Positions 35,278 through 54,218 are shown, counted from the first letter of the stretch. The stretch is DNA of 64,000 nucleotides from Acidiferrobacterales bacterium (GCA_028820695.1 JAPPIB010000055.1:64015-128014), one strand, 5' to 3'. Numbers and translations: made by a program. The notes: generated by a model not told the origin, from the letters alone.

Positions 35278-35387
35278 TTCTTGAGCCCTATCAAGCCGGA
35301 CCCGCCTGACTGTACCCGATGAACCCCGATGCAATGCCGTATCGCTGACGCCGAGTCTCCCACAATAGTTCTGACATCCGCATCGTC

Positions 35388-35885
35388 ATGGCTGACGTAT
35401 TTGACAAAGCGAAACGAAGCCGGATCATGGCGTCCATTACCGCGAAGGATACCAAGCCGGAAATGACAATCCGCAAGGCGCTGCATCGCAACGGTTACCG
35501 GTACCGACTTCATGACCGGACCCTTCCCGGCACACCGGATCTGACATTTCGGAAGTTCAAGGCAGTGATTATGGTTCACGGATGCTTCTGGCATGGACAT
35601 GATTGCACCTTGTTCAGGATGCCGGCAACGAATCAGAAGTACTGGAGCGACAAGATCAGCAACAACCAAAAACGTGATCAGAAAGTCCGGCAAGAATTGC
35701 TTGACTTGGGATGGCGCGTGCTCATCATCTGGGAGTGCAGCATGAAGGGTAGACATCGAACGGTATTGGATGACCTGATCCCGGCAATAGAAAACTGGTT
35801 GCTGAGCGACCATCGTGAGCTTGAGATCAGCGGCGGATCATCGATCTCGGGAGCCGAGCCGCCAAACTTGCATTGCAACAGTTGA
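35388..35885 (+). CDS. vsr: Very short patch repair endonuclease
   Basis: MADVFDKAKRSRIMASI..KDTKPE, LPGTPDL, HGCFWHGH.C..F..P and LGWRVLIIWEC are collinear with E. coli Vsr. Confidence 0.88.
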   Translation: MADVFDKAKRSRIMASITAKDTKPEMTIRKALHRNGYRYRLHDRTLPGTPDLTFRKFKAVIMVHGCFWHGHDCTLFRMPATNQKYWSDKISNNQKRDQKVRQELLDLGWRVLIIWECSMKGRHRTVLDDLIPAIENWLLSDHRELEISGGSSISGAEPPNLHCNS

Positions 35886-35993
35886 AAATAACCCGAATAA
35901 CCACATCTATCCGTGTGCTGGTGATTCACATCCGCGGCCGTCCTCACCAGTTTTCCGATCAGGATGGTTTGATTTGTCCGTGCCAATCCGGGA

Positions 35994-36695
35994 ATGAAGA
36001 TGGTTAACAAAGAAAATGAGCCTATCGTTGCGCTCAACGATCTGTGGTTGGTACTCAAAAGCCAGGCAGGGAGTGTTGAGATACTTCGAGGGGTCAATCT
36101 CAACGTAAGGTACGGCGAGAGTGTCAGTATTTCGGGACCGTCAGGTGCCGGCAAAACCAGTTTGATGATGATTATCGGCGGCATGGAAAAAGCCACCCGT
36201 GGACAGGCCGTTGTTGCAGGAGTGCGAATTAACGACTCGACTGAAGATGAGCTTGCCAGGTTCCGCAGACAGCATGTCGGGATTGTCTTTCAGTCCTTTC
36301 ATCTGATTCCAACCATGACGGCCTTGGAGAACGTCGCAATTCCACTCGAATTGTCCGGAGACAAGGATGCATTCGATCGGGCGAGAAGCGAGCTCGCCGA
36401 GGTCGGCCTTCTGTCCAGACTCGGTCACTATCCGAGCCAACTGTCAGGTGGCGAGCAACAACGCGTCGCCATCGCCCGTGCGTTGATTGCGCAACCTGAC
36501 CTGATTCTTGCGGACGAGCCCACCGGCAACCTGGACATGACGAACAGCGAACGAATCATGGATCTTCTGATTCAACGTTGTGCTGACAAGAACGCGACGC
36601 TGCTTCTCATTACCCATCAAAGGGAACTCGCGCAACGTTGCACCCGACATGTGGAAATTTCCGACGGCCGAATCATCGCCAATACGGACGGATAG
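35994..36695 (+). CDS. ABC transporter ATP-binding protein (YbbA/LolD-like)
   Basis: It has Walker [11 protein letters not shown], the Q-loop, signature [15 protein letters not shown], Walker [12 protein letters not shown] and the H-loop ITH. Confidence 0.88.
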
Positions 36696-36701
36696 AGTCT
36701 G

Positions 36702-39227
36702 ATGAACCTCACCGTCCTCAAAGTTGCATACCGCGATCTGCGACGCGGACATCGCGGCTTTTGGATTTTTCTGAGTTGCCTCGCACTCGGTGTGGCTGCA
36801 ATCACTGCGGTCATGACCATGTCAGCCAGTCTGGTCAATGGAATCGAGAGAGATGGCAGGATACTGCTCGGTGGCGAGATCGCGATCGGACAGCAGTTTC
36901 ATGACCTGACCGACGAACAGCTTCTGGAAATTCAGCAATACTCGGAATCCAGCACCAGATTTTTGGAAATGCGGACCCTGTTGCGTAGCGACGATGTTCG
37001 CAGAAGTGGACTCATTTCGTTAAAGGCGATCGACGACAACTATCCCGTTTACGGAGAGTTTGTTGTTCGCGACGGCGGAAATATCAGCGAATTGATCGCC
37101 TGGAACGGGGAAACATGGGGCGCGATTGTCGATCCAGTCCTGATTGAGTCAGGCCGGGTGTCGGTCGGTGAGCAGGTTTTCCTGGGAAACGCCATCTTCA
37201 CGGTTACCGCAGTGATCGAAAATGAACCGGACCGCATCGGCAGTACAGGAAGCTTCGGTTTCTGGCCGCGGGTGATTGTCAGTGACGAGGCGGTCAAGGC
37301 GGCCGGATTGGTGGTGGAAGGCAGTCGCACGTACTTCGACTACCGGATCAAGCTGAAACAGGGAGTCGACCCCCGCGAGCTCAAGACGCGCTGGTCGGAG
37401 CAGTATCCGAATCTGGACGTTCGAGACTATTCCAACGCGTCGCCGAACCTGGCCGAGGTGATCGAGCGGATCGGTGTGCTGCTGGCACTTGCCGGACTGA
37501 CAACACTGCTGATCGGCGGAGTAGGCGTAAGCAATGCGATTCGCGCCTATATGGACACCCGACTTTCGACGATTGCCATACTCAAGTGTGTCGGCGCGTC
37601 GCAGCGCCTCGTCTTTAGGATCTATCTGACTCAGATTCTGTTGCTTTCCGGTGTCGGTATCGCACTGGGTATGACGTTCGGGACCGCCCTGTCATTGGTG
37701 AGCGGGACGATCATTGCGAACCTGTATTCAGTTCCCATTGCGTACTCGTTCAGTCTTTACATCGCGATGATCATCATCACGTATGGCATGCTTACAGCCA
37801 TATTGTTCACATTATGGCCGCTTGCCTGCGCCCTCAACACGATGCCCTCGGCTCTTTTCAGAAATGCGGCGACCGCAGAAAGACGCACCGCCTCGTGGAT
37901 CTATGGTGTGATTTCCGCGCTGTTGGCTGTCGTGCTGGCCGGGATTGTAATCACGACCGCATACGAAACCCGATTTGCGGTTTGGTTTGTCATCTGCGTC
38001 AGTGTCGCCTGGGCCGCATTCAGGCTGGTAGGGCTGATCATCACCGTGATGTCAAGAAAATTCGGATTCCGGCATCTGCCCGCGCTTCGTCTGGCCATCG
38101 CCAACCTCCACCGTCCCGGGGCAGCCACCTCCGATATCGTGCTGGCAATCGGTCTGGGACTGTCGGTCCTGGTGGCGACCGCCATGGTATCGGCCAACAT
38201 GGACGAGCAGATCAACAATCTGATTCCGGACAACGCACCGACTTTCTTTTTCCTGGGCATTCAGTCAGAGCAGCTCAATGAATTCGAAAATCTGATTGAA
38301 GCGGCCGATGGCACCTCCGACTTGAATATTCTGCCCTATATTCCAGGCCGGATCACGCAGATCAAGGGAATGAACCCACTTGATGCCCTGGTGGACGAAG
38401 ACAGCCGCTGGCTGGTCGATGACGACGGTGAGCGCATATTCTCCTACACCGCGGTTCCGCTTGAGGGTGGCGAGATGATCAAGGGTGACTGGTGGAGCCC
38501 TGAATACTCAGGACCGCCTCTTCTTTCCATTCATAAGGATGTTGCGGAAGGTTTTGATGTCGACATCGGTGATACGATCACCATGAACATCCTGGGTCGG
38601 GAAATAACCGGTACCGTTCACAATATCCGCGATCTGGAATGGCGGTCAATGCGTCTGAATTTTGCCATTATGCTGTCACCGCATCCTCTGAATACGATCC
38701 CGCACTCGAATGTCGGTACGGTTCGCGCGCCCCCTGAAGTCGACTTTGTGCTGCAGGAGCACGTTGCGAGCAGTTACGCCAACATAACCGTGATTCGAAT
38801 CAAGGATGCCTTGGACCGTGTTGCCAACCTTATGGCACAGGCAAGAACTGTAGCCGGCAGCATCAGTACGGTTACAGTCCTGGCGGGAATCTTGGTGCTG
38901 GCGGGCATTGTCATCTCGGAGAATCGTCGACGGGCGTACGAGAGCGTACTGCTGAAGACAATCGGAGCCTCGAGAAAATACGTACTGGCAGCATTTTCGT
39001 TCGAATATCTGCTGCAGGGCGTAATCACCGCAGTGGTTGCGATCATATTTGGAACGGCCGCATCATGGGCAGTTGTTTCCGGGCTGATGGGTTGGGACTG
39101 GCAGCTGATACCGCTTCCCGCTTTGAATACAGCGATTCTGGGTTTGGCCATTTCTTTGGTTCTGGGCATGTTCGGCATCCTGAGAGCGTTGAGACAACGT
39201 CCGCTGACGTATCTGAGAAACGGATGA
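36702..39227 (+). CDS. FtsX-family ABC transporter permease with duplicated 4-TM modules (YbbP-like)
   Basis: 841 aa. It has two FtsX-like TM bundles, each preceded by a large extracytoplasmic domain, and sits immediately after the LolD-like ATPase. Confidence 0.8.
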   Translation: MNLTVLKVAYRDLRRGHRGFWIFLSCLALGVAAITAVMTMSASLVNGIERDGRILLGGEIAIGQQFHDLTDEQLLEIQQYSESSTRFLEMRTLLRSDDVRRSGLISLKAIDDNYPVYGEFVVRDGGNISELIAWNGETWGAIVDPVLIESGRVSVGEQVFLGNAIFTVTAVIENEPDRIGSTGSFGFWPRVIVSDEAVKAAGLVVEGSRTYFDYRIKLKQGVDPRELKTRWSEQYPNLDVRDYSNASPNLAEVIERIGVLLALAGLTTLLIGGVGVSNAIRAYMDTRLSTIAILKCVGASQRLVFRIYLTQILLLSGVGIALGMTFGTALSLVSGTIIANLYSVPIAYSFSLYIAMIIITYGMLTAILFTLWPLACALNTMPSALFRNAATAERRTASWIYGVISALLAVVLAGIVITTAYETRFAVWFVICVSVAWAAFRLVGLIITVMSRKFGFRHLPALRLAIANLHRPGAATSDIVLAIGLGLSVLVATAMVSANMDEQINNLIPDNAPTFFFLGIQSEQLNEFENLIEAADGTSDLNILPYIPGRITQIKGMNPLDALVDEDSRWLVDDDGERIFSYTAVPLEGGEMIKGDWWSPEYSGPPLLSIHKDVAEGFDVDIGDTITMNILGREITGTVHNIRDLEWRSMRLNFAIMLSPHPLNTIPHSNVGTVRAPPEVDFVLQEHVASSYANITVIRIKDALDRVANLMAQARTVAGSISTVTVLAGILVLAGIVISENRRRAYESVLLKTIGASRKYVLAAFSFEYLLQGVITAVVAIIFGTAASWAVVSGLMGWDWQLIPLPALNTAILGLAISLVLGMFGILRALRQRPLTYLRNG

Positions 39228-41683: not shown

Positions 41684-42139
41684 GTGAGCGTATTGAGACT
41701 TCATTCCGAGCCCCTTCAGGATTCCTGGCTGGATGCCTACGGACACCTCAACGAAGCCTATTACCTTGTCCCATTCACCAACACAACGTGGATCATGCAG
41801 GATCATTTCGGGATTGGTGTTGACTACTTTGAGAGAACTGGCTGTGCGCTTTACACCGTTGAAACGCATCTGCGATACCTTAAGGAAGTCAGGAAACCCG
41901 CCAATATTGAGGTGGAAACAATAATACTGGGGTCAGACGCCAAGAAAATATGGTTTGCCCACTTGATGCGGGTGGCGGAGAAGTTATGTGCGACAGCAGA
42001 ATTCATGATTCTCCACTACAGTACTCGAGAAAATAAGACAATACCCTTGCCGCAGGAGGTTCAGGCGATGCTGTCTGCGGCGGAAATTGACTCACGGCCA
42101 GATTGGGTGGGCAGACGCATATCCATGGCAAGGCAATGA
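41684..42139 (+). CDS. Hotdog-fold acyl-CoA thioesterase (4HBT/YbgC-like)
   Basis: At 151 aa, D.YGHLNEAYYL..F and the overall length and pattern are typical of 4HBT-type thioesterases. Confidence 0.65.
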   Translation: MSVLRLHSEPLQDSWLDAYGHLNEAYYLVPFTNTTWIMQDHFGIGVDYFERTGCALYTVETHLRYLKEVRKPANIEVETIILGSDAKKIWFAHLMRVAEKLCATAEFMILHYSTRENKTIPLPQEVQAMLSAAEIDSRPDWVGRRISMARQ

Positions 42140-42314
42140 AGCGCAGTTCGAGGACCGGTTGGCCAAAGGACGTACAGCTTCACGGTCTGAACATCACTTG
42201 CTGTTTTGGCAGCTTGTCTCAACTGGCATTTTGATGTGCTTTGGTGTGGAGACTATCTGATTGGAAACGCGGTCACGTCCGAGCAGAAAATTAAGAAAAA
42301 TCAGTATTGAAGAC

Positions 42315-42881
42315 ATGTTGAGAGTTTTGTATGCCGTCGTATTCGGGCTCGTTCTGGTGCCAGTGCCATCAATCGGGCAGGATAGGTCTGCTGACTGCAA
42401 TCCTTCCATAAACATTGACATTGACGAGACGTCGTTTACCCGTGAAGAAGTGATTGCGCTGATAGACGAACTTTTCTATGAGTCACTGGCCGAGTATCAG
42501 GAATGTCTCGGAGGCGGCGCAAGCGGTGGTGCTGTCGCAAGCGGCGCAACCAGCGGCGGACAGACTTCAGGATCTATTGAGTCTGTAGCGGCATCGGGCG
42601 TTCAGGGTACAGATTCGCCGTCGCTCGAGCCTATTGAAGAAGAAAGTGTCAGCACTTTCCAATCTGACTTGCCGCCCGCAGACAATGGCAAGATTCCTGA
42701 AGACTTGCCGCTCGCAGACAATGGCAAGATTCCTGAAGACATTCCGCCCGCAGACAACGACAGCGTCCTCGCGGCACAGATCCGTCTCGCGGCGGAAAAT
42801 GAGACCGATCCGGCGGCACAGGCAGCCCTGTGGAACGAATATCGAAAGGTCAAGGGCATTAAAGTAAGGGAAGTCAAATAG
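42315..42881 (+). CDS. Secreted protein with tandem DLPxADNGKIPE repeats (first gene of the stator/vWA cluster)
   Basis: The signal-like N-terminus MLRVLYAVVFGLVLVPVPSIG is followed by a G/S/A-rich segment, the repeats and an acidic tail. I recognise no family. Confidence 0.45.
   Translation: MLRVLYAVVFGLVLVPVPSIGQDRSADCNPSINIDIDETSFTREEVIALIDELFYESLAEYQECLGGGASGGAVASGATSGGQTSGSIESVAASGVQGTDSPSLEPIEEESVSTFQSDLPPADNGKIPEDLPLADNGKIPEDIPPADNDSVLAAQIRLAAENETDPAAQAALWNEYRKVKGIKVREVK
42666..42762 (+). repeat. 36-bp in-frame tandem repeat, 2.7 copies
   Basis: Units at 42666-42701 and 42702-42737 differ at 2 positions. A partial third unit runs to about 42762. They encode DLPPADNGKIPE / DLPLADNGKIPE / DIPPADND. 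Confidence 0.85.
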
Positions 42882-42912
42882 CGAGAAACCGAATGTATTG
42901 GAGAATGGTCAA

Positions 42913-44136
42913 ATGAAAAAGATCTTTTTTATGCTGTGCTTGAGTCTGAGCGCATTGTCACTGGTCAGTTGTGTTGGCGGTGGGTCCGGCGGGCAGGTTT
43001 CTTCTTTGAGCAAGACGCCGTTCGGCGTCAGTCTTGAGGACTCACCAGGTAGCAAGACCGCAAGTCATTACGCGGGTGTCAAGCTCGACGTCATTGTTCC
43101 TGTATTCGACCCCAACATTCCTGAGGACCCCGACGAATACGAAAAACTTGGCGTGTGGCCAGAACTTCGAAGAACTGAATCGGTTCGGTTCGCTCAGGCG
43201 ATGAAATTGGCCCTGCAGGATACCATGGCTTTTGGCGATGTCCGCATCGCACCCGATGTGGCCGTCGCCGGCGACTTGTACGTAATCGGCAGAGTCGACA
43301 AGTCCAATGGTGAGGACATCGAAATCTACATCCAGGTCTACGATGCGAGCGGAAAAAGGTGGTCGAAAAAGACCTTCAAGCACCGCGTCAAGGAGTATCA
43401 CTGGAGGGATGTGCGTCAGAAAGATAAAGATCCGTATCAACCAGTTTTCTCGAAGGCTGCCGAACATATTGTCAGTCTGCTCAAGAAGGTTCCGCAACAA
43501 AGACTCGGAGATGTGAGAGCGATTACAGAAATCAAGTTTGCCAGTGCCTTTGTTCCGGGCGTGTACTCGGATCACGTAACAGTTGAGAATAACAAGATCC
43601 AACTCGTTTCCCTGCCGCCGGAAAACGACCCCATGCTTGAGCGTACCAGGGCGATCAGAGTGGTTGATGGGCTGTTCATGGATAAGATGCAGACTCACTA
43701 CAACAGTCTGGTACGGGACACGAACGACAGTTATGTCTCATGGCAGGAGCACAGCCTGACTTCTGCAAAACAGGCTCGAGAAGCAAAATCCAAGGCCGCA
43801 GGGCAAGCGATTCTAGGTGGGTTGCTGTTGCTGGGCGCTGCGTATGCGGCGTCCGAAAGTGACTCAACGGGCGATCAACTGGTAACCGCCGGTTTGGCTA
43901 CCGGAGGTGTATTGATGTTGCAGGACAGTTTCAGTGCCAACGCTGAAGGCAAATTCCACCAGGAAAATCTGATGGAGTTGGGACAGACGCTGAACTTTGA
44001 AGTGGCTCCACAAATTGTGGAGTTCGAAAATACGACTCTTGAGCTTCGAGGAGGAGTCAAGTCCCAGTATCGTCAATGGCTGACTGTGCTCGGAGACCTT
44101 TACGAGCGTGAAAGGATTCCTGATATTCAGCTTTGA
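42913..44136 (+). CDS. Lipoprotein with a C-terminal Gly/Ala-rich hydrophobic hairpin
   Basis: It has the lipobox LSLVSC and a large soluble domain, then AILGGLLLLGAAYAA...LVTAGLATGGVLML. I recognise no family. Confidence 0.5.
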   Translation: MKKIFFMLCLSLSALSLVSCVGGGSGGQVSSLSKTPFGVSLEDSPGSKTASHYAGVKLDVIVPVFDPNIPEDPDEYEKLGVWPELRRTESVRFAQAMKLALQDTMAFGDVRIAPDVAVAGDLYVIGRVDKSNGEDIEIYIQVYDASGKRWSKKTFKHRVKEYHWRDVRQKDKDPYQPVFSKAAEHIVSLLKKVPQQRLGDVRAITEIKFASAFVPGVYSDHVTVENNKIQLVSLPPENDPMLERTRAIRVVDGLFMDKMQTHYNSLVRDTNDSYVSWQEHSLTSAKQAREAKSKAAGQAILGGLLLLGAAYAASESDSTGDQLVTAGLATGGVLMLQDSFSANAEGKFHQENLMELGQTLNFEVAPQIVEFENTTLELRGGVKSQYRQWLTVLGDLYERERIPDIQL

Positions 44137-44206
44137 TGCCGAAGCCGACGTAGGAAGTTATTGCAGCGAGCCATGATTCAGTGGGTGTTGATGGTACTGA
44201 ACGAGC

Positions 44207-46294
44207 ATGCCCGCGACAGATGACATCACAACCCCAAAACAGAATCGTATTTCAACACGAACTCTGTTATTGACCGCCATCTTGCTCGTCGTTGTGTTGG
44301 CCGGCGGTGTCTGGCTTGCGCGAATGTATACGATCGATGACCTCGCGGGCATGGTGACTGATTCTTCGACCTGGCTTGACGACCCGCTTGATTCTCGAGA
44401 TGATTCAGCTGATCCAGTTCAGCTGAACCAGCGTTACCAGCAGCTGCATGCAGACCTGCAGGCTGCACTGAATTCAGATCAAAGTGAGAAACTTCGCAAT
44501 TTCGGGAGAGCAAAATTCCGCGAGCAGGTCGCTTTGGGGTTGATTCGTGCACAAGACGCTTTCAATGCCGGCGACGTCGACGATGCGCTGCGGCATTTGG
44601 AATTATCTGCAGAGCACTGGCGCCAGGCAGTCTCAGAAATCGATGCAATGTCCTCTGGTTCAGGAACTGTGCAACAGATTCAGGCGGGTCTTTCTGACAG
44701 ACAGACAGACGGCGTGTCTGATGATTCATCGAAGTCAGCATCAGAACAGAATCGAATGGATGAGGGAGGAGACTTATCACTTGATCACGATCAGCCCGGT
44801 GAGGTATCGATAGCGAATGTAATCCTTTCAATACCCATAGGTGAGCAAAGATCAGACGGTGATCTGGCGCAGGGCAACCGGCAATCGGTGGAGTTGCCGA
44901 TTTCGGACGCGGAACCAGAATTTACTGACGGCAGCAACATAGCGGATTCCGCTGAGGTGTCCGACCGGGAAGTTTCCGCATTGAGTCCACAAACGAACTT
45001 CGAAACCGAGGGCTCACAGCCAAGCGAAACAGAACATCAACGCGACACCGCGCCAGACAACGAAAATCTGGCCAGACTGGAGTACGAATTTTTGATGTCG
45101 GAACTGAATCGCGTTTTACCAACCGTTCAGGAAAACCAGAATCTTGTACCGCAAAACAAAAGCATCATTGAAACGGCGCAGCAAAATTTCACCAAGGCAA
45201 AAGATGCTTATCGAGTGCAGAGGTTCAGCGATGCAAAGCGATTCGCTGTTATCGCACTCGCTGACGCAAACAAGGCAGTCGAGCACGAAGAGCGGCATTA
45301 TCATCTGAGTCTGGCAGCTGCCAAGGATGCGTATGCAGACCGCAATGTCGAAATTGCCGCGCAGGCAATTGATCGGGCTGTTGCGTTGCGACCGAACAGT
45401 CATGAAGCGGCTCACTGGCACGATCAGATTGAATCATTGCCAAATCTGATCGAAGCGCAGCAAGACGCAGACTCTGCCCGCGACTCGGGCCAGTTGCACA
45501 AGGAAGTTGAAGCCCTCGAACGAGTCGTACTGTATTCGAACGACACCGATTGGACCGAACAACGCATCGCAGAACTTAAGCAATTGATCAGTGACAGGCA
45601 GTTCTTCAGCACCATTAGTCGGGGGCTTACGGCTTTATCGGATGGCAATATTGAACAGGCAAGAACCGAACTCTCGAACGCCAGGAATCAACGGCCATCT
45701 TCATCGGAAACCGCAAGATTGCAAAGTGGCATTGAACACGCAGAGCGACAACACAGGATCTCTGAACTCCTCGAAGCTGCCACACGCGCTTGGGAACAGG
45801 ATAACTGGAACAATGCACTTGTTCACTATCAGAAAGTCTTGTCCATCGATCCGGATCGTGATGAGGCCGTCCAAGGTCGTGAATTTGCAACCAGGATTAT
45901 CGCACTGCAAAGTGCAATGGATGATTTTCTCAACAGACCCCATCGACTGAGCTCGCCCAATATAGCCGCTTCTGCCAATTCAGCCGTTGAGAGTGCCGCG
46001 CCGTTGGGCGTTTTCAGCCGCAGACTCGAGTTGACTGCCAACTCGCTGGCAGATGCAATTCTCGAGTGGCAGACACCTGTGCTGGTAAGGGTGCTGTCAG
46101 ACGGAAAGACGGAAATCGGGATCCGGGGGGTCGGTCGCATCGGAAGGACGAAAGAAAAGTCAATCACATTGCGTCCTGGCACCTACGTTTTTGAAGGACG
46201 AAGAGAAGGATATCGCTCGACCCTGATAGAAATCGTCGTGGCAAGCAGCGAAATTGCACAGGAAATAACCGTGATCTGCAGTGAGCGAAGTTGA
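44207..46294 (+). CDS. N-terminally membrane-anchored protein: acidic disordered region, TPR-like helical repeats, C-terminal PEGA-like beta domain (TolA-like layout)
   Basis: The TM is TLLLTAILLVVVLAGGVWLA and residues ~150-290 are D/E/S-rich. TPR-like units include AKDAYRVQRFSDAKRFA and NWNNALVHYQKVLSIDPDRDEA. The C-terminus reads VLVRVLSDGKTEIGIRG...LRPGTYVFEGRREGYRS. Confidence 0.5.
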   Translation: MPATDDITTPKQNRISTRTLLLTAILLVVVLAGGVWLARMYTIDDLAGMVTDSSTWLDDPLDSRDDSADPVQLNQRYQQLHADLQAALNSDQSEKLRNFGRAKFREQVALGLIRAQDAFNAGDVDDALRHLELSAEHWRQAVSEIDAMSSGSGTVQQIQAGLSDRQTDGVSDDSSKSASEQNRMDEGGDLSLDHDQPGEVSIANVILSIPIGEQRSDGDLAQGNRQSVELPISDAEPEFTDGSNIADSAEVSDREVSALSPQTNFETEGSQPSETEHQRDTAPDNENLARLEYEFLMSELNRVLPTVQENQNLVPQNKSIIETAQQNFTKAKDAYRVQRFSDAKRFAVIALADANKAVEHEERHYHLSLAAAKDAYADRNVEIAAQAIDRAVALRPNSHEAAHWHDQIESLPNLIEAQQDADSARDSGQLHKEVEALERVVLYSNDTDWTEQRIAELKQLISDRQFFSTISRGLTALSDGNIEQARTELSNARNQRPSSSETARLQSGIEHAERQHRISELLEAATRAWEQDNWNNALVHYQKVLSIDPDRDEAVQGREFATRIIALQSAMDDFLNRPHRLSSPNIAASANSAVESAAPLGVFSRRLELTANSLADAILEWQTPVLVRVLSDGKTEIGIRGVGRIGRTKEKSITLRPGTYVFEGRREGYRSTLIEIVVASSEIAQEITVICSERS

Positions 46295-48296
46295 ACGAAT
46301 TCTGAACCTAGCACAGCGCAGCCACCGAAAACGGGCGGTCATCGCTACGGCAGTTGTAGTGTCGATCTGTGCGCTGGCAGGGGTGTTGTACTTCGCAACT
46401 GTGGTAATCGGGAAAGTATCTGTTGTCATAACACCGACGGAGGCATCCAATTCGGCCCAAATTGCAGTCACGCAGGGCAAGGGCTATGTGACGGGCTCCA
46501 GAATCTGGGGACTGAAAGGCGATATGATCATCCGGATATCAGCCGACGGGTATGAAACCGAGGAATTCTCGATCACACACGCGACATGGGAGCGGGAGAA
46601 GGTGGATGTGATCATGCGAGAAGTTCTCGCCACTCTGAAAGCAGTCGCCACACCCCGACTTCCTGACATCCGATGGCATCTGAATGATAACCTTGTCGGA
46701 CAAGGCGATTCGCTGGACATGAAACTGAACTCCGGAGATTACCGTATCAGTGCTGTACACCCCTATTATGTTCCGCAGACATCGGTATTTTCTGTGAACA
46801 GGGGCGAACGATACAATCTTGATCTGACACTGAAGCCGATGAAGGGAGAAATTTTCATCACATCGGCACCAGGCGGCGCTGAAGTGGCATCGGATCAAGA
46901 GGTGTTAGGCAGGACTCCGTTGAATCTGCAAGTCGAAGGCGGCGTTCATCACCTGACCGTTTCCGCTGACAGATACGACACCAAGACAGATTCGATATCA
47001 GTCAGCAATTCCTCTCCGACGGTCAAACGGCACTACGAGCTGAAAAGAACGTTGCGGCCGGTGTCGTTGATCCTTTCTCCAAAAGGAGGCGTCATCTCAT
47101 TGGACGATGAAGTCATATCGGTACCAACCGGCAAATTGCTCCTGCCCGTTGGAAGCCAGCACAGCCTGCGCTATTCCAAGCAAGGATTCAGCACGAAGGG
47201 CGAGAAGTTCACAGTCAATGAAAGCGGGAATTCGGTCGCGCTTGAGCTAAAGCCCATATACGGAGTGGTGAGAATCGATTCGCACCCGCGTGCGAAAATC
47301 GAGATTGGCGGTACGGACTATGGACAAACCCCCCAACTGCTGAAAATTCACGCCGTTGAACAGACTGTTGCGCTGAGCGCGCCCGGCTACCAGACACAGT
47401 TCAGAAAGTTTGTCCCGGACGAAAATGTCCCATTGGAGATGTTTGTCACACTGGAGACGAAAAGTGCCTACAGATTGAGAAATTCACCGGCGCAGTACTC
47501 GAACAGTGCGGGCATGGAGATGAAGCTGTTCAAAACCGCAGATACGATCACAGTGGGTTCACCGCGAGGTGAGATCGATCGACGGGCGAACGAGTTTCTC
47601 AGGGAGGTCAGGCTTTCAAGGCCGTTCTATGCCGGTGTTCATGAAGTATCGGTCGAGCAATACAACAAGTTCAAGTCGCCCGACGCGGCCGGCTCGGGAA
47701 ACCGTCATCCCATTGTCGGCATAGACTGGATTTCGGCCGCAAAGTTCTGTAATTGGCTTAGCAGGCAAGAAGGGCTTGAACCGGTTTATCTGTTCCCGGA
47801 CGGGCAATTTACCGGGAGCGATCCGTCCGCCGACGGTTATCGAATGCTGACCGAGGCTGAATGGGAGTGGCTGGCAAGAAAGGCAGGACGCGTTGAGCAG
47901 TCCATTTTTACGTGGGGTAACAGCAGGACAATACCCAAGAATTCCGGTAATCTCGCAGATGAATCAGCAACGGGAAAGGTGGAGTCATACATTCCCAACT
48001 ACAGCGATGGTGCACCGTCACTTTCCGAAACGGGACGTTTTTCGTCCAACCCGTCCGGACTGCATGATCTGACCGGGAATGCAAGGGAATGGGTACATGA
48101 TGCCTACAGCTTGCGGCCGCCGAGGGAGGGCGAGGTGAAAGATGACGTCCTGGACAGCGACGATTCGTTGCGGCGAACCTTCAAGGGATCAAGTTTCAGG
48201 TCGGCAGACCCTGCTGAGTTACGTGCTTCGTGGCGGGACGGCAGCGACTCGTCGGCCGATGACATTGGATTTCGAGTTGCCCGCTACCTTTACTGA
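46281..48296 (+). CDS. Membrane-anchored protein with several PEGA domains and a C-terminal FGE-sulfatase (SUMF1-like) domain
   Basis: GTG start overlapping the previous ORF by 14 nt; the TM is VIATAVVVSICALAGVLYFATVVI. PEGA units include GEIFITSAPGGAEVASDQEVLGRTPL and VVRIDSHPRAKIEIGGTDYGQTP. The FGE-type blocks are PFYAGVHEVSVEQYNKF, HPIVGIDWISAAKFCNWLS, YRMLTEAEWEW, NAREWVHD and GSSFRS...DIGFRVAR. Confidence 0.62.
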   Translation: MSEVERILNLAQRSHRKRAVIATAVVVSICALAGVLYFATVVIGKVSVVITPTEASNSAQIAVTQGKGYVTGSRIWGLKGDMIIRISADGYETEEFSITHATWEREKVDVIMREVLATLKAVATPRLPDIRWHLNDNLVGQGDSLDMKLNSGDYRISAVHPYYVPQTSVFSVNRGERYNLDLTLKPMKGEIFITSAPGGAEVASDQEVLGRTPLNLQVEGGVHHLTVSADRYDTKTDSISVSNSSPTVKRHYELKRTLRPVSLILSPKGGVISLDDEVISVPTGKLLLPVGSQHSLRYSKQGFSTKGEKFTVNESGNSVALELKPIYGVVRIDSHPRAKIEIGGTDYGQTPQLLKIHAVEQTVALSAPGYQTQFRKFVPDENVPLEMFVTLETKSAYRLRNSPAQYSNSAGMEMKLFKTADTITVGSPRGEIDRRANEFLREVRLSRPFYAGVHEVSVEQYNKFKSPDAAGSGNRHPIVGIDWISAAKFCNWLSRQEGLEPVYLFPDGQFTGSDPSADGYRMLTEAEWEWLARKAGRVEQSIFTWGNSRTIPKNSGNLADESATGKVESYIPNYSDGAPSLSETGRFSSNPSGLHDLTGNAREWVHDAYSLRPPREGEVKDDVLDSDDSLRRTFKGSSFRSADPAELRASWRDGSDSSADDIGFRVARYLY

Positions 48297-48407
48297 CTTC
48301 AGGCTGTCTATGAAAATTCACGATAGTTCCCAGGTAGTATAATCGACATGAACAGTAGTGAGATGTTGGCAAAAAGACAACTGCCTGTTCCAACAGGAGT
48401 CTGAGAT

Positions 48408-48569
48408 TTGTTTGGAATTCGTTCGAAATCGCGTATGTACGCGCTGATTCTTCTCACATCGCTGGCTATTGCTGTACTGGGAGTAAGCTACTACCTCTCT
48501 GAGCCCGCGCGTAGCCAGAATAGTCAAATCAGCCTGAATTCTCCGGTCAGCTTCCCGGTGGACATATGA
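48408..48569 (+). CDS. Small (53-aa) single-pass membrane protein, not in the ORF track
   Basis: TTG at 48408 lies 8 nt after AGGAG (48395-48399). The TM is MYALILLTSLAIAVLGVSYYL, and the stop TGA at 48567-48569 is 1 nt before the ATG of the MotA-like gene. An alternative ATG start is at 48435. Confidence 0.4.
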   Translation: MFGIRSKSRMYALILLTSLAIAVLGVSYYLSEPARSQNSQISLNSPVSFPVDI

Positions 48570-48570
48570 T

Positions 48571-49326
48571 ATGAAGCACACGGTTCGCAGTTTTGCGATA
48601 CTGGCAACTTCTGCGCTTGGTGTCCATCTTTTTTACATTGAGTTCATCAGACCGAAGGCTGAGATCGTTATCGAAGCCGCCCGCCGGGCCGGGCAGTCCG
48701 CCCCCCGGGAATGGGTTGTCATTCTTAAGGATTGGGAACAGGAAATCTGCATCATCCTGATGCTGTTCTGCATAGTGCAGATTGTTCTGAAACTCAGGGA
48801 GGTCGCCAAAGAACAATATCTGTTCAAAGTCGATCTCTTTGCGGCCGCGGATCAGGAGGAAACCCCGCTTGCTGACACCCTGGAAGAGCTGGAATCACTT
48901 CCCGATCACATTGGACGCACCCAGCTCTTGGAGACGCTGAAGGCCAGTCTGCGCCGCTACCGCATAACAGAAGATGTTCAGAACACCTCTGATGCCATAC
49001 AGACAAGTGTAGAGGCATTGTCTATGCGTCTGGAGGCGGACAATACGATGATCAGATATGTTATTTGGGCCATACCTTCCATCGGGTTCATCGGTACTGT
49101 TCGCGGTATCGGTACCGCGCTGTCGCAGGCTGACAAAGCATTGGCAGGCGATATTTCAGATATGACCGCCAGCCTTGGAATTGCGTTCAACTCAACTTTC
49201 GTCGCGCTGGTAATCAGTATAGTGCTCATGCTGCTGTTGCATTCCTTACAGCGGGCACAGGACAAAAGACTGGTTGACATTCAGAACTATTGCGAAGAAT
49301 TCCTGCTCAAACGCATCAGTCGTTGA
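48571..49326 (+). CDS. MotA/TolQ/ExbB-family proton-channel-like protein
   Basis: It has a 4-TM layout with a ~85-aa loop. IPSIGFIGTVRGIGTAL ... ASLGIAFNSTFVALVISIVLMLL matches the family signature by eye. Confidence 0.65.
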   Translation: MKHTVRSFAILATSALGVHLFYIEFIRPKAEIVIEAARRAGQSAPREWVVILKDWEQEICIILMLFCIVQIVLKLREVAKEQYLFKVDLFAAADQEETPLADTLEELESLPDHIGRTQLLETLKASLRRYRITEDVQNTSDAIQTSVEALSMRLEADNTMIRYVIWAIPSIGFIGTVRGIGTALSQADKALAGDISDMTASLGIAFNSTFVALVISIVLMLLLHSLQRAQDKRLVDIQNYCEEFLLKRISR

Positions 49327-49339
49327 CTTGTGATTCGCC

Positions 49340-50404
49340 ATGAGGAAAACTCGGCGCAGTCAAGGCAGCACACTCGCATTTCTTGACGTAATGGCGTGTG
49401 GCCTGGGCGTGGCCATCCTGCTATTCCTGATCGTCAAGCACAACACCGGTGCAGTCGAGGATCAGTCAAGTCAGGTGGAATCAGATGCGAATCAAGTCGA
49501 GTTGCTAAGCCAGTTGGAAGAGCACGAGTCGCAGCTTTCCCGCGAGCTTGAACTCGCACGGCAAGCCGAATCAGCGGCGCGCAACGAATCCCGGCGACTC
49601 GACGAACTTGAGAAGAAACAAAATCAACTGGCAATACTCCAGAGCCAGTTGGAATCCGAACGTGTGCGAAAGACCCGACTGCAAGATGAAATAGTTTCGA
49701 TACAGCCTCGACAGGCAGCCGATGTACTAGAAAATTCCCAGGTTGGCGAAGAGAAATATCTCTTGGGACTGGAAGTCAAAGGGCGCAACATCGCAATATT
49801 GATCGATCGCAGTGCGTCCATGACAGACAACTTGCTGGTCGATATCATCAGTCGAAAAGTTCGATCCGACACCATAAAAAAACAGGGCCCCAAGTGGAAA
49901 CGTACAGTACGGACTGCGAAGTGGCTGTTGAATCGAGTCCCCGAAGACTCGAATGTGATCGTGGTCGCATTCAACGATCAGGCGCAGATATTGAATGAAG
50001 GTCGCTGGGCCAAGGGACGGGACAGCGAATCGCTTCAGGGGATCGTCGACGAGTTGGCTCAGCTGGTCCCCACAGGCGCAACGAATCTGGAGTCTGCATT
50101 ACGGGAATTGAAATCCGCATCGCCATTTGCAAGCGACCTGTATGTCATTACCGATGGTTTGCCGACCCAAAGCTTGTCTCGACCGGTGTTGTTCTCCAGT
50201 TGCAGGAACAGGTCGAATACGGTCAGCGGCAGTTGTCGCAAGGCATACTTTCACAGCAGCCTGGTTGTGGTGCCGGAATCAGGAACAGTCGTTAACGTGA
50301 TATTGTTGCCTCTGGAGGGAGATCCCGAAGCCGCGCCCGAATACTGGTCGTGGGCCGCGGTGACTGGAGGCACAATGCTGGTTCCGGCGGAAAATTGGCC
50401 ATGA
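49340..50404 (+). CDS. ExbD/TolR-like TM(Asp) - coiled coil - vWA (MIDAS) protein
   Basis: The basic N-terminus is followed by the TM STLAFLDVMACGLGVAILLFLIV with Asp16 (49385-49387) and a ~100-aa heptad region. The vWA domain has DRSAS (49805-49819), GATN and ITDG. Confidence 0.65.
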   Translation: MRKTRRSQGSTLAFLDVMACGLGVAILLFLIVKHNTGAVEDQSSQVESDANQVELLSQLEEHESQLSRELELARQAESAARNESRRLDELEKKQNQLAILQSQLESERVRKTRLQDEIVSIQPRQAADVLENSQVGEEKYLLGLEVKGRNIAILIDRSASMTDNLLVDIISRKVRSDTIKKQGPKWKRTVRTAKWLLNRVPEDSNVIVVAFNDQAQILNEGRWAKGRDSESLQGIVDELAQLVPTGATNLESALRELKSASPFASDLYVITDGLPTQSLSRPVLFSSCRNRSNTVSGSCRKAYFHSSLVVVPESGTVVNVILLPLEGDPEAAPEYWSWAAVTGGTMLVPAENWP

Positions 50405-51339
50405 AAAAGAAAAGACAAGGTACAGAAGTCTTCAGCCTGGCGTTTTTGGACATTGTAACTTGCGGATTTGGTGCAATCATTCTGCTGTTGCTGATTACAA
50501 GACCGATCCCGGTCGAAGTTGATGCTGTTCAGGAATCTGTTGACCTGACGTCCTCCATACAACTCGTGTTGACGACCATTGCCAGGTTGGAAACCGAGTT
50601 GGCATCAATGAGCATGACCAAGCTGGAAGTTCCCAAGACCCGGCCCGGTGACACGGAGACGCTTGACCAATCCATTGCACAAGCCGGCGCTGAGCTTTCC
50701 GATTTGAAAGCTGACAATCTGGGCCTTGAACAAGTCGTCGAGTCATTGAAGCGGATAACAATCCGAGCAACCACAGAACCAGAGCAGCGAGCCCCGGAAG
50801 TCGGCGGAATTCCGGTTGACAGCGATCACGTCATATTCATTGTTGACACGTCGGGGAGCATGATGGCAATCTGGGACCAGGTCATCGATGTCATATATAA
50901 AGTGATCGACATCCATCCAAAAGTGAACGGATTTCAAATATTGAATGACAACGGAAGTTATCTGATTCAGGGCACTCGACGCAAGTGGATTCCGGATACG
51001 CCAATCACGCGAAAAAACGTCAAGGGCGTATTGTCTTCGTGGGCCAGTTTTTCCAACAGCAGTCCCGTCGAGGGTTTGGAAGTTGCGTTGAGGACCTACG
51101 CCAAACGCAAGGAGAACATATCAGTCTATATTTTCGGAGATGAGTTTACCGGCTCATCCTATGACGCGGTGATTGACACCGTAGATCGTTTGAATATCGA
51201 CAACTCGACCGAAAAAGCGATCGCACGTATACACGCAGTCGGATTCATTTCGGGGTACAGCGGTGACCGCTATGCGACATTAATGAGATATGTGACTGAA
51301 AGAAATCGCGGGTCATTTATTGGGTTGCCTTTGAGGTGA
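50401..51339 (+). CDS. Second ExbD/TolR-like TM(Asp) - coiled coil - vWA protein (paralogue of the preceding gene)
   Basis: It has an ATGA overlap with the previous ORF. The TM is FSLAFLDIVTCGFGAIILLLLIT with Asp17 (50449-50451), followed by a helical linker. The vWA-like domain has DTSGS (50845-50859) and IFGDE. Confidence 0.6.
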   Translation: MKKKRQGTEVFSLAFLDIVTCGFGAIILLLLITRPIPVEVDAVQESVDLTSSIQLVLTTIARLETELASMSMTKLEVPKTRPGDTETLDQSIAQAGAELSDLKADNLGLEQVVESLKRITIRATTEPEQRAPEVGGIPVDSDHVIFIVDTSGSMMAIWDQVIDVIYKVIDIHPKVNGFQILNDNGSYLIQGTRRKWIPDTPITRKNVKGVLSSWASFSNSSPVEGLEVALRTYAKRKENISVYIFGDEFTGSSYDAVIDTVDRLNIDNSTEKAIARIHAVGFISGYSGDRYATLMRYVTERNRGSFIGLPLR

Positions 51340-51567
51340 GCCAATGAACTTCGGCTTGTTGCGATGCGGTTGTTTTCGCCGCGGATCAGGCTTGTTCCGA
51401 TACTTCTTTTTCACAATCTCAATATAGATGTAAATATCGAAGCTGTGGAAGTGCTGATAATGGAATATGACAGGAACAAGTCAAGAGCAGACCAAGAAGA
51501 TCACGGGTTGACTTATAGTTGGAGAGACAATCCTCATCTTGAACGCGCCTGCGCTTCATAAATCAGC

Positions 51568-51769
51568 ATGGCGTCGCATGACAGGAAATTGTCAAAATTG
51601 TTGAAAGACAATGGATGGGTAATCGATAGACAGCCACGTGGCAGTCACTAAACGGTCATGATTGGTGTCATTCTTCCCGCACAATGAAAACAATTTTCAA
51701 GGCAAATGTGGCGCTCATCTGCATAATTCCCTTCAGAAAGCGATGTGTGGATTCAGTCAGAGAATCTGA
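51568..51769 (+). pseudogene. Degraded hicA-type toxin gene remnant
   Basis: ATG 51568 to TAA 51649-51651 encodes MASHDRKLSKLLKDNGWVIDRQPRGSH, matching the HicA N-terminal half up to the GSH motif before a premature stop. A shifted frame (51662-51769) reads LVSFFPHNENNFQGK...SLQKA, weakly like the HicA C-terminal half. No hicB partner is present. Confidence 0.4.
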
Positions 51770-52509
51770 CTGAGAAATTCCTTGGTTCGAGGATCCTTTG
51801 CCTCGGAAAAGAATGTTGATGGCGGTCCATACTCAACGATTACTCCGCGATCGGTAAAGTAGATACAGTCCGCAACCTCACGCGCGAAACCCATCTCGTG
51901 AGTGACCAATATGCATGTCATTCCATCTTCTGCCAGATCCTTGATCGTGACGAGGACTTCCTTGACTGTTTCCGGATCAAGAGCTGCTGTTACCTCATCG
52001 AACAGCATAACCCGCGGATTCATTGCCAGCGACCGGGCGATCGCGACTCGCTGTTGCTGCCCTCCCGACAGTTCTCCCGGAAAACTGTCCTCCTTGCCAG
52101 TCAGGTTGACCCGTTTCATAAGGTGGACTGCGCGTTCCCTGACTTGTTCAGGATCTTGCTTGAGCACTTTCACCGGTGCCATCATGATGTTCTGCAATGC
52201 GGTACGGTGCGGAAACAGATTGTATTGCTGAAACACCATGCCGACCTTCTTGCGCAGCTCAAGCTTGTCGAGCTTCGGATCGTGCACCTCCTGCCCTTCC
52301 ACCCTGATCGAACCGGAATTGATGTCATTCAGTGCATTGATGCAGCGAATCAGGGTTGACTTGCCCGAACCGGAAGGACCGATCACGCAGACCACCTCGC
52401 CTGCCATGACATCCATTGAGATTCCTTTGAGAACCTCAAGTGAACCGAATGACTTGTACAAGTCCCGGATCGAAACGATAGGTTCGGATTCTGTCCAGTT
52501 CATAACCAT
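51757..52509 (-). CDS. Polar amino acid ABC transporter ATP-binding protein (GlnQ/ArtP type)
   Basis: It has Walker [11 protein letters not shown], signature [16 protein letters not shown], Walker [14 protein letters not shown] and TKEFLSQIL at the C-terminus. Confidence 0.9.
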
Positions 52510-52563: not shown

Positions 52564-53460
52564 TCAAAGCTTGACGGCATAACGTTTCTCCAGTCGAATC
52601 GTCAGTCGTGCGATAGGATAACAATATACGAAGAATATCATTAACGCGAAACTGTAAAACGGCACAAGCAGTTCCGGATGGTTGTTTTCCGACTCGATTG
52701 CCTGCCTGCTCAAGGTGATCAGTTCTTCCACGCCCAGCAGCGAGCACAACGGCGTGGCCATCGTCAGGATCGCATACCAGTTCATCCATGGTGGAATCAT
52801 CCGCTTGAAACATTGAGGCAGAATGATCTGCCAAAGAATCTGCCTTCTGCTGAAAGCCAACGACTCGGCCGCTTCCCACTGGCCTGTCGGTACCGACTGG
52901 ATTGCGCCGCGAACCACTTCAGATATGTTCGCCATGATGGGCAATGACAATCCGAACACCGCTTTGAACCAGTCGGGTACAGAAATGATCATTCCGCCTA
53001 TCGTAATCTCGAACGGTAACGCCAGCAGCACGATGAACAGAAGCACCAACCATGGAGAATTGCGAAATAACTGGGTCGTGAACTTGGCCGCAAACCGGAT
53101 TGCCCAAATCGGTGAAATCTGGGCGATTCCCAATAGAACGCCGGCCATGGTGCCGATCATCATGGTCAGAACCGAGATCAGCAGATTGAACAGAAAACCA
53201 CTCAAGAATAGAAAAGGAAGCCACTTGAACAGCGCCTTGATCGCATCGTCATATCCATAACCTGCGGCCAGCGCGGTGAGCGGCCAGATCAGGCACAGCG
53301 CAAAGGCGACTGGAACAATCCAGGGAGCGGCGCTGACCAGCCAGCTGCTGAATCCAACCAGTCCATTTTCGTCAGTTCCCCGATATCGGTAAGGCAACAG
53401 TACCGGCAAGTCGGTGCTCGCGCGCGCCTGAAGCCCGGGTATGGGCCGTGAACCCCTCAT
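52564..53460 (-). CDS. Amino acid ABC transporter permease (HisM/GlnP type)
   Basis: It shows FRNSPWLVLLFIV and the EAA-loop EAAESLAFSRRQILWQIILPQ. I chose the start MRGSRP at 53460, which forms an ATGA overlap with the upstream permease; the listed ORF extends to 53607. Confidence 0.85.
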   Translation of the reverse strand: MRGSRPIPGLQARASTDLPVLLPYRYRGTDENGLVGFSSWLVSAAPWIVPVAFALCLIWPLTALAAGYGYDDAIKALFKWLPFLFLSGFLFNLLISVLTMMIGTMAGVLLGIAQISPIWAIRFAAKFTTQLFRNSPWLVLLFIVLLALPFEITIGGMIISVPDWFKAVFGLSLPIMANISEVVRGAIQSVPTGQWEAAESLAFSRRQILWQIILPQCFKRMIPPWMNWYAILTMATPLCSLLGVEELITLSRQAIESENNHPELLVPFYSFALMIFFVYCYPIARLTIRLEKRYAVKL

Positions 53461-54218
53461 GATGATCCGTAGCCTGGAATCTTCATGGAATGCTCCCACT
53501 TGTGCATGCCAGCGACAAGAATCCCCACCAGTATGATGAAAACAACGAACAGCACCGTCATCGTCGGATAAAGTGCGCTTGGATAGTCGTTCCAGATGCC
53601 CACGCATTCGTAGAGCAGTTCGGGTACCGCAATTCCGATCGCCTGGGTAGTGGTCTTGATCAGGTTCACCAGATTGTTGTTCAGTGCCGGCAGGGAGACC
53701 CGAAATGCCAGCGGCAGAATCAGTTCCACGTAAGACTGGAATCTGGAAAACCCCAGTGAATCAGCAGCCTCCCGGGTGGACTCCGGAACTGCCTCAATGC
53801 CGGCCCTGAAAATCTCAACGTTGAACGATCCGGCAAAAAACGACAGTGAGATGATCGCCCAGCCGACATTCGAGATCAAAGGCACTTCGGTCCAGCCATC
53901 GGGACCGGTGATCGTGGGTGTGATCTGCCCCAGCGCGAAGTAAAAGAACAGCAACTGGACAAATGGCGGTGTGTTGCGGAAGAACTGGATGTATCCCTGT
54001 ACCAGCAACCGCACCCAGCGCTTGGGTGAGCCTTGCAGCCAGGCACCGACGATGCCGATGACGACCGACAGCAGCACACAGGCGACGGACAACAGGACCG
54101 TCATTTTCAATCCGCCTACAAGTCGCCACCATTGAAACGAATCGTAAAAGAAAATGAAGTTCCAGCGAGGATAGTCGTCCGCCAGCTGGAGAAAAAATGA
54201 CGTGATCGTCTCAATCAT
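53457..54218 (-). CDS. Amino acid ABC transporter permease
   Basis: It shows FFRNTPPFVQLLFFYF and the EAA-loop EAADSLGFSRFQSYVELILP. Confidence 0.85.
   Translation of the reverse strand: MIETITSFFLQLADDYPRWNFIFFYDSFQWWRLVGGLKMTVLLSVACVLLSVVIGIVGAWLQGSPKRWVRLLVQGYIQFFRNTPPFVQLLFFYFALGQITPTITGPDGWTEVPLISNVGWAIISLSFFAGSFNVEIFRAGIEAVPESTREAADSLGFSRFQSYVELILPLAFRVSLPALNNNLVNLIKTTTQAIGIAVPELLYECVGIWNDYPSALYPTMTVLFVVFIILVGILVAGMHKWEHSMKIPGYGSS

Follow-up and report, generated by a model that had tools for sequence, protein, structure and literature searches.

What takes the part of the B subunit in an ion-driven motor when a MotA-like channel gene is followed by genes for two proteins that end in von Willebrand factor type A (vWA) domains? 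This question is raised by three open reading frames (ORFs) on the plus strand, at 48571-51339, of a 64,000-nt stretch of DNA from Acidiferrobacterales bacterium, a metagenome-assembled genome (MAG); that whole stretch is referred to here as the window. The ORFs encode one MotA/ExbB-family protein and then two translationally coupled paralogues, and they are the last of eight co-oriented genes (42261-51339, plus strand) that we number g1 to g8. Ion-driven motors of the 5:2 type turn flagella, energise TonB-dependent uptake, stabilise the outer membrane, power gliding and type 9 secretion, and act in defence against phage. We think it likely that g6, g7 and g8 encode a motor of this MotAB/ExbBD/TolQR type, with the vWA pair as its B subunits.

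The three genes, and the residues on which the argument turns, lie in the window as follows (TM, transmembrane; MIDAS, metal-ion-dependent adhesion site):

48571..49326, plus strand: g6, MotA/ExbB/TolQ-family channel subunit, 251 residues, presumed pentamer (PF01618)
49340..50404, plus strand: g7 (vWA1), 354 residues, TM helix at 12-32, stalk at 38-122, vWA domain at about 146-354 (VWA_2)
50401..51339, plus strand: g8 (vWA2), 312 residues, TM helix, two-helix stalk, vWA domain at about 140-310 (by profile-profile and fold matches)
49096-49098, plus strand: codon of g6 T176, predicted to line the pore
49195-49197, plus strand: codon of g6 T209, predicted to line the pore
49385-49387, plus strand: codon of vWA1 TM aspartate D16
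50449-50451, plus strand: codon of vWA2 TM aspartate D17
49805-49819, plus strand: vWA1 MIDAS residues D156-S158-S160
50081-50083, plus strand: vWA1 MIDAS residue T248
50153-50155, plus strand: vWA1 MIDAS residue D272
50845-50859, plus strand: vWA2 MIDAS residues D149-S151-S153
51070-51072, plus strand: vWA2 E224, at the MIDAS threonine position
51139-51141, plus strand: vWA2 MIDAS residue D247

The ATG start of vWA2 (50401) overlaps the stop codon of vWA1 as ATGA. A longer reading of vWA2, from a GTG at 50350, is unlikely because the database copy, which is likewise 312 residues long, starts at ATG 50401. A preliminary description of this DNA had given each of the two ORFs after the MotA-like gene a basic N-terminus and one TM helix containing an aspartate; the ORFs confirm this, and both TM strings that it quoted are exact, D16 and D17 being the 16th and 17th codons.

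The channel subunit and the transmembrane aspartates

The MotA-like identity proposed for g6 is upheld by its match to MotA_ExbB (PF01618; E 1.6e-14, profile positions 9-125 of 127), which at 54.2 bits lies above the Pfam gathering score of 22.9. Judged by sequence, g6 is nonetheless a separate, remote branch of the MotA/ExbB/TolQ superfamily, because it falls far below the equivalog cut-offs for ExbB (TIGR02805; 25.0 bits versus 135.35) and TolQ (TIGR02796; 23.7 bits versus 221), and because the sole match of its family profile among solved structures was B. subtilis MotA (6ysl), at E 0.1. As a single-sequence query against PDB sequences, g6 gave no match.

For comparison across genomes we used 80 loci retrieved by a pattern that contains the vWA1 aspartate; these loci are unbiased for D17, and played no part in the evidence on D16. 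All 80 relatives keep two threonines of g6: T176, which lies in GTVRGI, and T209, which lies in NSTF. Profile alignment with E. coli TolQ and ExbB reference sequences places them on TolQ T145/T178 and ExbB T148/T181, so that the GTVxGI and xxT motifs of these PF01618 channels coincide.

Homologues of vWA1 were sought exhaustively with HMMER among 1.84 billion cluster representatives, and 1,674 clusters were returned at E<=1e-3, 671 at 1e-10 and 297 at 1e-30. Conservation of D16 was assessed in the best 150 representatives, which are 27-54% identical to the window protein (median 32%): every one of the 132 that include the N-terminus keeps the aspartate; the remaining 19 either are fragmentary or had their start called at a methionine just after D16. 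D17 is kept in 81/81 vWA2 sequences, from loci chosen without reference to vWA2. An invariant TM aspartate together with a ring threonine pair is the ion-pathway signature of this superfamily.

The residues flanking the two TM helices are biased in charge. In 81 sequences each, the mean net charge of the 12 residues before the helix is +3.4 for vWA1 and +2.3 for vWA2, while that of the 15 residues after it is -1.5 and -2.0, respectively. Because positive charge precedes the helix and negative charge follows it, both proteins are predicted to be N-in, with their vWA domains in the periplasm rather than the cytoplasm.

vWA heads, metal sites and stalks

The vWA domain of vWA1 is recognised by Pfam as VWA_2 (PF13519; E 1.8e-7, 32.2 bits where the cut-off is 27), and vWA2 has no Pfam match. 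The assignment for vWA2 comes from two other comparisons. The family profiles of vWA2 and vWA1 align from the TM helix through the vWA domain (hhalign; 98.6% probability, E 7.8e-16), and an AlphaFold2 (AF2) model of vWA2, in which the vWA domain has pLDDT of about 80-89, matches solved vWA domains in Foldseek at E 2e-7 to 1e-5, among them anthrax-toxin receptors (1t6b_Y, E 2.4e-6, TMt 0.69), ITIH1, alpha2-delta, C2a and Rpn10. On this profile alignment and modelled fold, vWA1 and vWA2 are paralogues with the same layout. The preliminary description had proposed that two TM(Asp)-vWA paralogues take the B-subunit role, and that proposal is supported: the conservation of the aspartate, the topology and the vWA assignment have all withstood examination.

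It had also described both MIDAS motifs as intact, which stands for one protein only. In vWA1 the site is complete, with D156, S158, S160, T248 and D272 each present in 81/81 sequences, and in the 150 distant representatives the same positions read D, S, S, T (142) or S (7), and D. In vWA2, D149, S151, S153 and D247 are each found in 81/81, but the threonine position is occupied by glutamate (E224 in the window; 72 E, 6 Q and 2 D of 81), making this, from its sequence, a variant putative metal site.

An insertion in the vWA1 domain holds two cysteines, C288 and C299 (50201-50239), which are invariant among 14 aligned close relatives; of the 150 distant representatives, only about half have the pair. 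Their pattern is consistent with a periplasmic disulfide.

Between helix and head, each protein had been assigned a helix of about 100 residues. This holds approximately for vWA1, whose residues 38-122 form an 85-residue stretch without proline or glycine that weakly matches coiled-coil proteins, but not for vWA2: there the AF2 model, at low confidence in the stalk, shows one helix at 49-73 and another at 85-118, with a Pro/Gly break between them. Searches of PDB sequences with the vWA1, vWA2 and g2 family profiles returned coiled-coil noise only, or nothing. The distance from the TM aspartate to the MIDAS is nearly equal in the two proteins, with medians of 136 (vWA1) and 135 (vWA2) residues.

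A motor with vWA heads and its rivals

Motors of this general kind have been proposed. A study published in June 2025 (Mol Biol Evol; PMC12204202) describes a TM-tethered "transpore helix" (TPH) vWA family that co-occurs tightly with tolQ homologues, lacks tolR/exbD neighbours, is mostly encoded as heterologous pairs and conserves an aspartate in the transpore helix. Its AlphaFold3 models place two vWA helices inside a TolQ-like pentamer, the Asp pair being ringed by threonines, and its authors suggest that the vWA pair is the moving part; the study is computational only and reports no phenotypes (PMC12204202). The window genes fit every feature stated for these TPH-vWA/tolQ-like predicted motors: TM-tethered vWA proteins with a conserved aspartate, a heterologous pair, a linked tolQ-like gene with no tolR/exbD nearby, a conserved threonine ring in the channel protein, and a distribution mainly in Proteobacteria. 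The motor interpretation is thus sound, and already published as a computational proposal (PMC12204202). Our literature searches for this gene combination found no paper besides that one, and what appears to go beyond its text is the eight-gene module, the small gene g5, and the Thr-to-Glu change in the vWA2 MIDAS.

In the machine that we propose, with a presumed stoichiometry of 5:2, g6 would form the outer ring in the inner membrane, and one vWA1 and one vWA2 N-terminal helix would sit inside it as the central B-type pair. D16 and D17 would face the ring threonines and bind and release protons, or possibly Na+, as known motors do, so that ion flow would make ring and pair rotate relative to each other. 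The periplasmic part of each B-type protein would be a helical stalk (that of vWA1, at about 85 residues, would span roughly 12-13 nm if fully helical) ending in a vWA head whose MIDAS may bind an acidic residue on a partner; the likely partners are proteins co-encoded in the module. The heads would stand in for the peptidoglycan-binding domain of MotB, or for the small periplasmic domain of ExbD/TolR, as the anchor or force-delivering end. This leaves two arrangements: either the vWA pair is fixed and the ring pulls on the TM-anchored product of g3, g4 or g1; or it is the pair that moves.

Several points weigh against this proposal. Homology of the TM helices to known B subunits is unproven, and their likeness could be convergent, because the helices match neither the ExbD nor the MotB family: 45-residue TM peptides of vWA1 and vWA2 found no match in Pfam at E up to 10, and full-length g7 and g8 matched neither ExbD/TolR (PF02472) nor MotB. 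The (F/L)(L/I)D(V/I) context of the aspartate, pointed out in the preliminary description, is shared with ExbD and TolR, a likeness to which the Pfam scan lends no statistic. On sequence g6 is very distant from every solved motor (best E 0.1), and vWA2 lacks the MIDAS threonine. A continuous two-stranded coiled coil is doubtful because the vWA2 stalk is broken by Pro/Gly, in a low-confidence model. The stalk lengths of vWA1 and vWA2 do not co-vary across loci (Pearson -0.11, over a range of lengths so narrow that this says little).

The last two of these points would also suit a motor built from homodimers, with separate populations of g6 plus two vWA1 and g6 plus two vWA2, and it is as homodimers that the MotB, ExbD and TolR pairs are known. 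The absence of stalk co-variation and the difference in predicted helix continuity both lean this way, but the paralogues are strictly 1:1, lying side by side in 80/80 loci, their translation is coupled and their Asp-to-MIDAS spacing is nearly identical; in addition, the published model contains one of each vWA protein, and motors with two different TolR-like genes are on record (PMC12204202). We regard separate homodimers as unlikely.

If instead the vWA proteins were peripheral force transducers outside the ring, in the manner of TolA or TonB, the true B subunit would be encoded elsewhere, which is conceivable in that only 64 kb of this genome was inspected. The vWA TM helices, however, carry an invariant aspartate and no SHLS/His motif, and no candidate for such a subunit is found near the module. 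Queries with E. coli ExbD, TolR and MotB (phmmer, E up to 1) found none in the 64-kb window and none in the 80 related loci with their 10-kb flanks, and a Pfam scan of the eight-gene module found no ExbD or MotB family. The module is moreover self-contained with variable flanks (see below), and we consider this arrangement quite improbable.

Very improbable, too, is a static vWA adhesion or scaffold complex in which g6 would be a platform or channel and the aspartate structural. It takes its appeal from the Bat operons, in which paired membrane-anchored vWA paralogues (BatA/BatB), for which such a complex has been proposed, occur with a TPR protein, as they do here; the TM aspartate and both ring threonines are, however, invariant down to 27% identity, and the module includes no MoxR-type ATPase. 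We can hardly credit a Zorya-like anti-phage defence system on a MotAB-type motor, since the weak PADLOC similarity of g6 to ZorA (E 1.2e-4) and a patchy taxonomy, with identities of about 50% between Gammaproteobacteria, Alphaproteobacteria and Nitrospirales that suggest horizontal transfer, are set against a module of eight envelope proteins with no nuclease, helicase or other effector, which in the window is flanked by housekeeping genes; none of the six other module proteins scanned matches a PADLOC model.

Set beside the motors already described, the g6-vWA1-vWA2 machine would share with ExbB-ExbD as with TolQ-TolR a PF01618 channel, and single-pass, predicted N-in partners with the TM aspartate in a common context; it would differ from them in the remoteness of g6, in the absence from the module of an ExbD-fold periplasmic domain and of a TonB or TolA gene, and in having two different B-type genes with vWA heads on long stalks. 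With MotA-MotB and PomA-PomB it would share an ion channel ring and an Asp-bearing single-pass partner whose periplasmic end is an attachment module; unlike MotB and PomB, the vWA proteins match no OmpA-like peptidoglycan-binding domain or plug motif, the cytoplasmic loop of g6 is short, and no flagellar genes lie near the module. The AglR-AglQ-AglS gliding motor of Myxococcus is said to combine a TolQ-like channel with two different TolR-like partners, and to have the vWA adhesin CglB in its output. The likeness extends to the TolQ-like channel, the two different B-type partners and a vWA domain in the output of an envelope machine driven by the proton-motive force (PMF), but the Myxococcus vWA domain is on a separate outer-membrane lipoprotein and is not fused to a B subunit, and the accessory proteins are unrelated.

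Zorya ZorA-ZorB is a further example of a MotAB-type motor in a non-flagellar role, from which the module differs in the weak ZorA similarity of g6, in lacking ZorB, ZorC and ZorD, and in having no long cytoplasmic tail. A defence-system reading was considered and rejected, PADLOC showing this weak ZorA similarity only. Membership of a Bat/MoxR-type vWA system was likewise rejected, the module having no AAA+ ATPase.

Integrin-type adhesion domains at the end of the central pair would give this motor superfamily a new kind of output, and the vWA branch is not rare: the 297 clusters found at E<=1e-30 are clusters at 50% identity.

The eight-gene module, its distribution and its surroundings

The five genes upstream of the trio are as follows:

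42261..42881, plus strand: g1, the module's first gene, 206-residue envelope protein, hydrophobic segment at 20-38
42898..44136, plus strand: g2, predicted lipoprotein (MKKIFFMLCLSLSALSLVSC)
44207..46294, plus strand: g3, membrane-anchored TPR-like protein, 695 residues, N-terminal TM helix at 20-38
46281..48296, plus strand: g4, membrane-anchored, 671 residues, with PEGA repeats and, at the C-terminus, an FGE-sulfatase-fold domain (GldK/PorK-like)
48408..48569, plus strand: g5, small ORF, 53 residues from TTG 48408 or 44 residues from ATG 48435

All eight products have an N-terminal hydrophobic segment or are polytopic, and there is no cytoplasmic enzyme among them. Of the 80 loci, g6 is present in 79, g7 and g8 in all 80, and most absences of module genes coincide with contig ends; the full gene order is also seen in two distant representatives. 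The window's own flanking genes (TyrRS, GATase, a thioesterase, an amino-acid ABC transporter and ThrC) rarely occur at other loci, so the eight-gene block is, judged by gene content, self-contained. A scan of 41900-51900 for promoters and terminators gave counts no higher than in shuffled sequence. The module as a whole offers experimenters a concrete parts list.

Neither g1 nor g2 matched Pfam or NCBIfam. A g1 homologue occupies the same position in 67/80 loci. Within g1 there is a 12-residue tandem repeat, encoded by a 36-nt unit at 42666-42757 (plus strand; 2.6 copies, 92% match; unit DLPPADNGKIPE). The g2 gene, found in 70/80 loci, has its likely start at ATG 42913, giving 407 residues. 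Besides a hydrophobic stretch rich in Gly, g2 has an alpha/beta domain, a helix of 74 residues and a small domain at the C-terminus in its AF2 model (pLDDT 72.5, pTM 0.71). The model has weak fold matches (E 2e-3 to 4e-2) to PelC, the TolB N-domain, LptE and PqiC, which hint at a kinship of the modelled fold with outer-membrane-associated periplasmic proteins. The TPR matches of g3, also found in 70/80 loci, are sub-threshold (TPR_2, E 1.7e-5).

The g4 product, present in 75/80 loci and also in the distant loci L082 and L084, matches PF03781 at E 3e-29 and PF08308 at E 1.4e-24. An operon that combines a 5:2-type motor, with a central pair reaching far into the periplasm, and an FGE-sulfatase-fold protein recalls the GldKLMN/PorKLMN genes of the type 9 secretion system (T9SS). 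The likeness of g4 to GldK is at the level of the domain only (58 bits against a cut-off of 350), however; g4 is TM-anchored and not a lipoprotein, and GldL, GldM and GldN homologues were not detected in the NCBIfam scan, which argues against membership of the T9SS. The all-envelope gene content and the g2 lipoprotein suggest, by analogy, that the task lies at the outer membrane and resembles that of Tol-Pal or PorKLMN, so that the whole would be a PMF-powered machine acting across the periplasm, with a logic comparable to that of those two systems.

The smallest member of the module, g5, ends one base before the start codon of g6. Its N-terminus resembles a signal peptide, its C-terminal tail, ISLNSPVSFPVDI-COOH, is nearly invariant, and it matched nothing in Pfam. 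Directly upstream of the MotA-like gene, 77/79 loci have a tail of the form FPxDI-stop, and in distant loci a small ORF ends in LPQDI-stop after a clear signal peptide. The hydrophobic stretch of g5 relatives mostly ends in a signal-peptidase-like xxA/Q site, which the window copy fits less well. From these sequence features, the g5 product is probably secreted into the periplasm, as a short protein whose C-terminal Asp-Ile is invariant. It would seem to be unannotated in the source record, because between locus tags OXI60_11230 (g2) and OXI60_11255 (g8) there is space for four genes only. We may speculate that its conserved acidic end is bound by a MIDAS site or by the TPR protein.

A bolder picture, which we regard as doubtful, would see in the block an uncharacterised PMF machine with a MIDAS head fused to its rotating or pulling pair, that is, a motor-driven catch-and-pull device. 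Its ligand would be encoded in the operon, as the Asp-Ile-COOH end of g5 or the g2 lipoprotein, and one of the two vWA heads would hold it, with the Glu-substituted vWA2 head remaining self-occupied or regulatory. Such a device, if it exists, would have no counterpart among MotAB, ExbBD-TonB, TolQRA, GldLM and ZorAB.

The same gene order is found in Gamma-, Alpha-, Zeta- and Betaproteobacteria, Nitrospirales, Desulfobacterota, Binatia and a spirochaete, and at least 504 species-representative genomes hold a relative. Cultured hosts are Glaciecola punicea, Magnetovibrio blakemorei, Aestuariispira insulae, Denitrobaculum tricleocarpae and Sneathiella; Glaciecola punicea (locus L069) has the module, its order being related to Idiomarina loihiensis, the species of the seed proteins in the 2025 study. 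The vWA1 proteins of Nitrospirales and Alphaproteobacteria MAGs (L017, L021-L023, L026, L027 and L031) are 47-53% identical to that of the window, and the same-class Arenicellales vWA1 are no closer to it. That other classes and phyla are as close as the same class suggests, from sequence identity, that the whole module has spread horizontally among bacteria from similar samples.

In a subset of loci, mostly from Rhodospirillales and Sneathiella, vWA1 has no ATG, GTG or TTG before the TM helix, the sole candidate being a CTG that overlaps the stop codon of MotA as CTGA (for example, 9990-10060 of L042). The longest vWA1 ORF starts after the TM helix also in L041, L048, L057-L061, L067 and others. 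These sequences suggest a non-canonical start, or coupled re-initiation, at the CTG-type loci.

Elsewhere in the window, the region upstream of the module at 34201-39227 (plus strand) encodes unrelated proteins: an RmuC-family protein, a Vsr mismatch endonuclease, and a pair made up of a MacB-type ABC ATPase and an FtsX-like permease. Downstream, at 52564-54218 on the minus strand, two ABC permease ORFs (52564-53607 and 53457-54218) overlap by about 150 nt as listed, and the listed start of the former is probably too far upstream.

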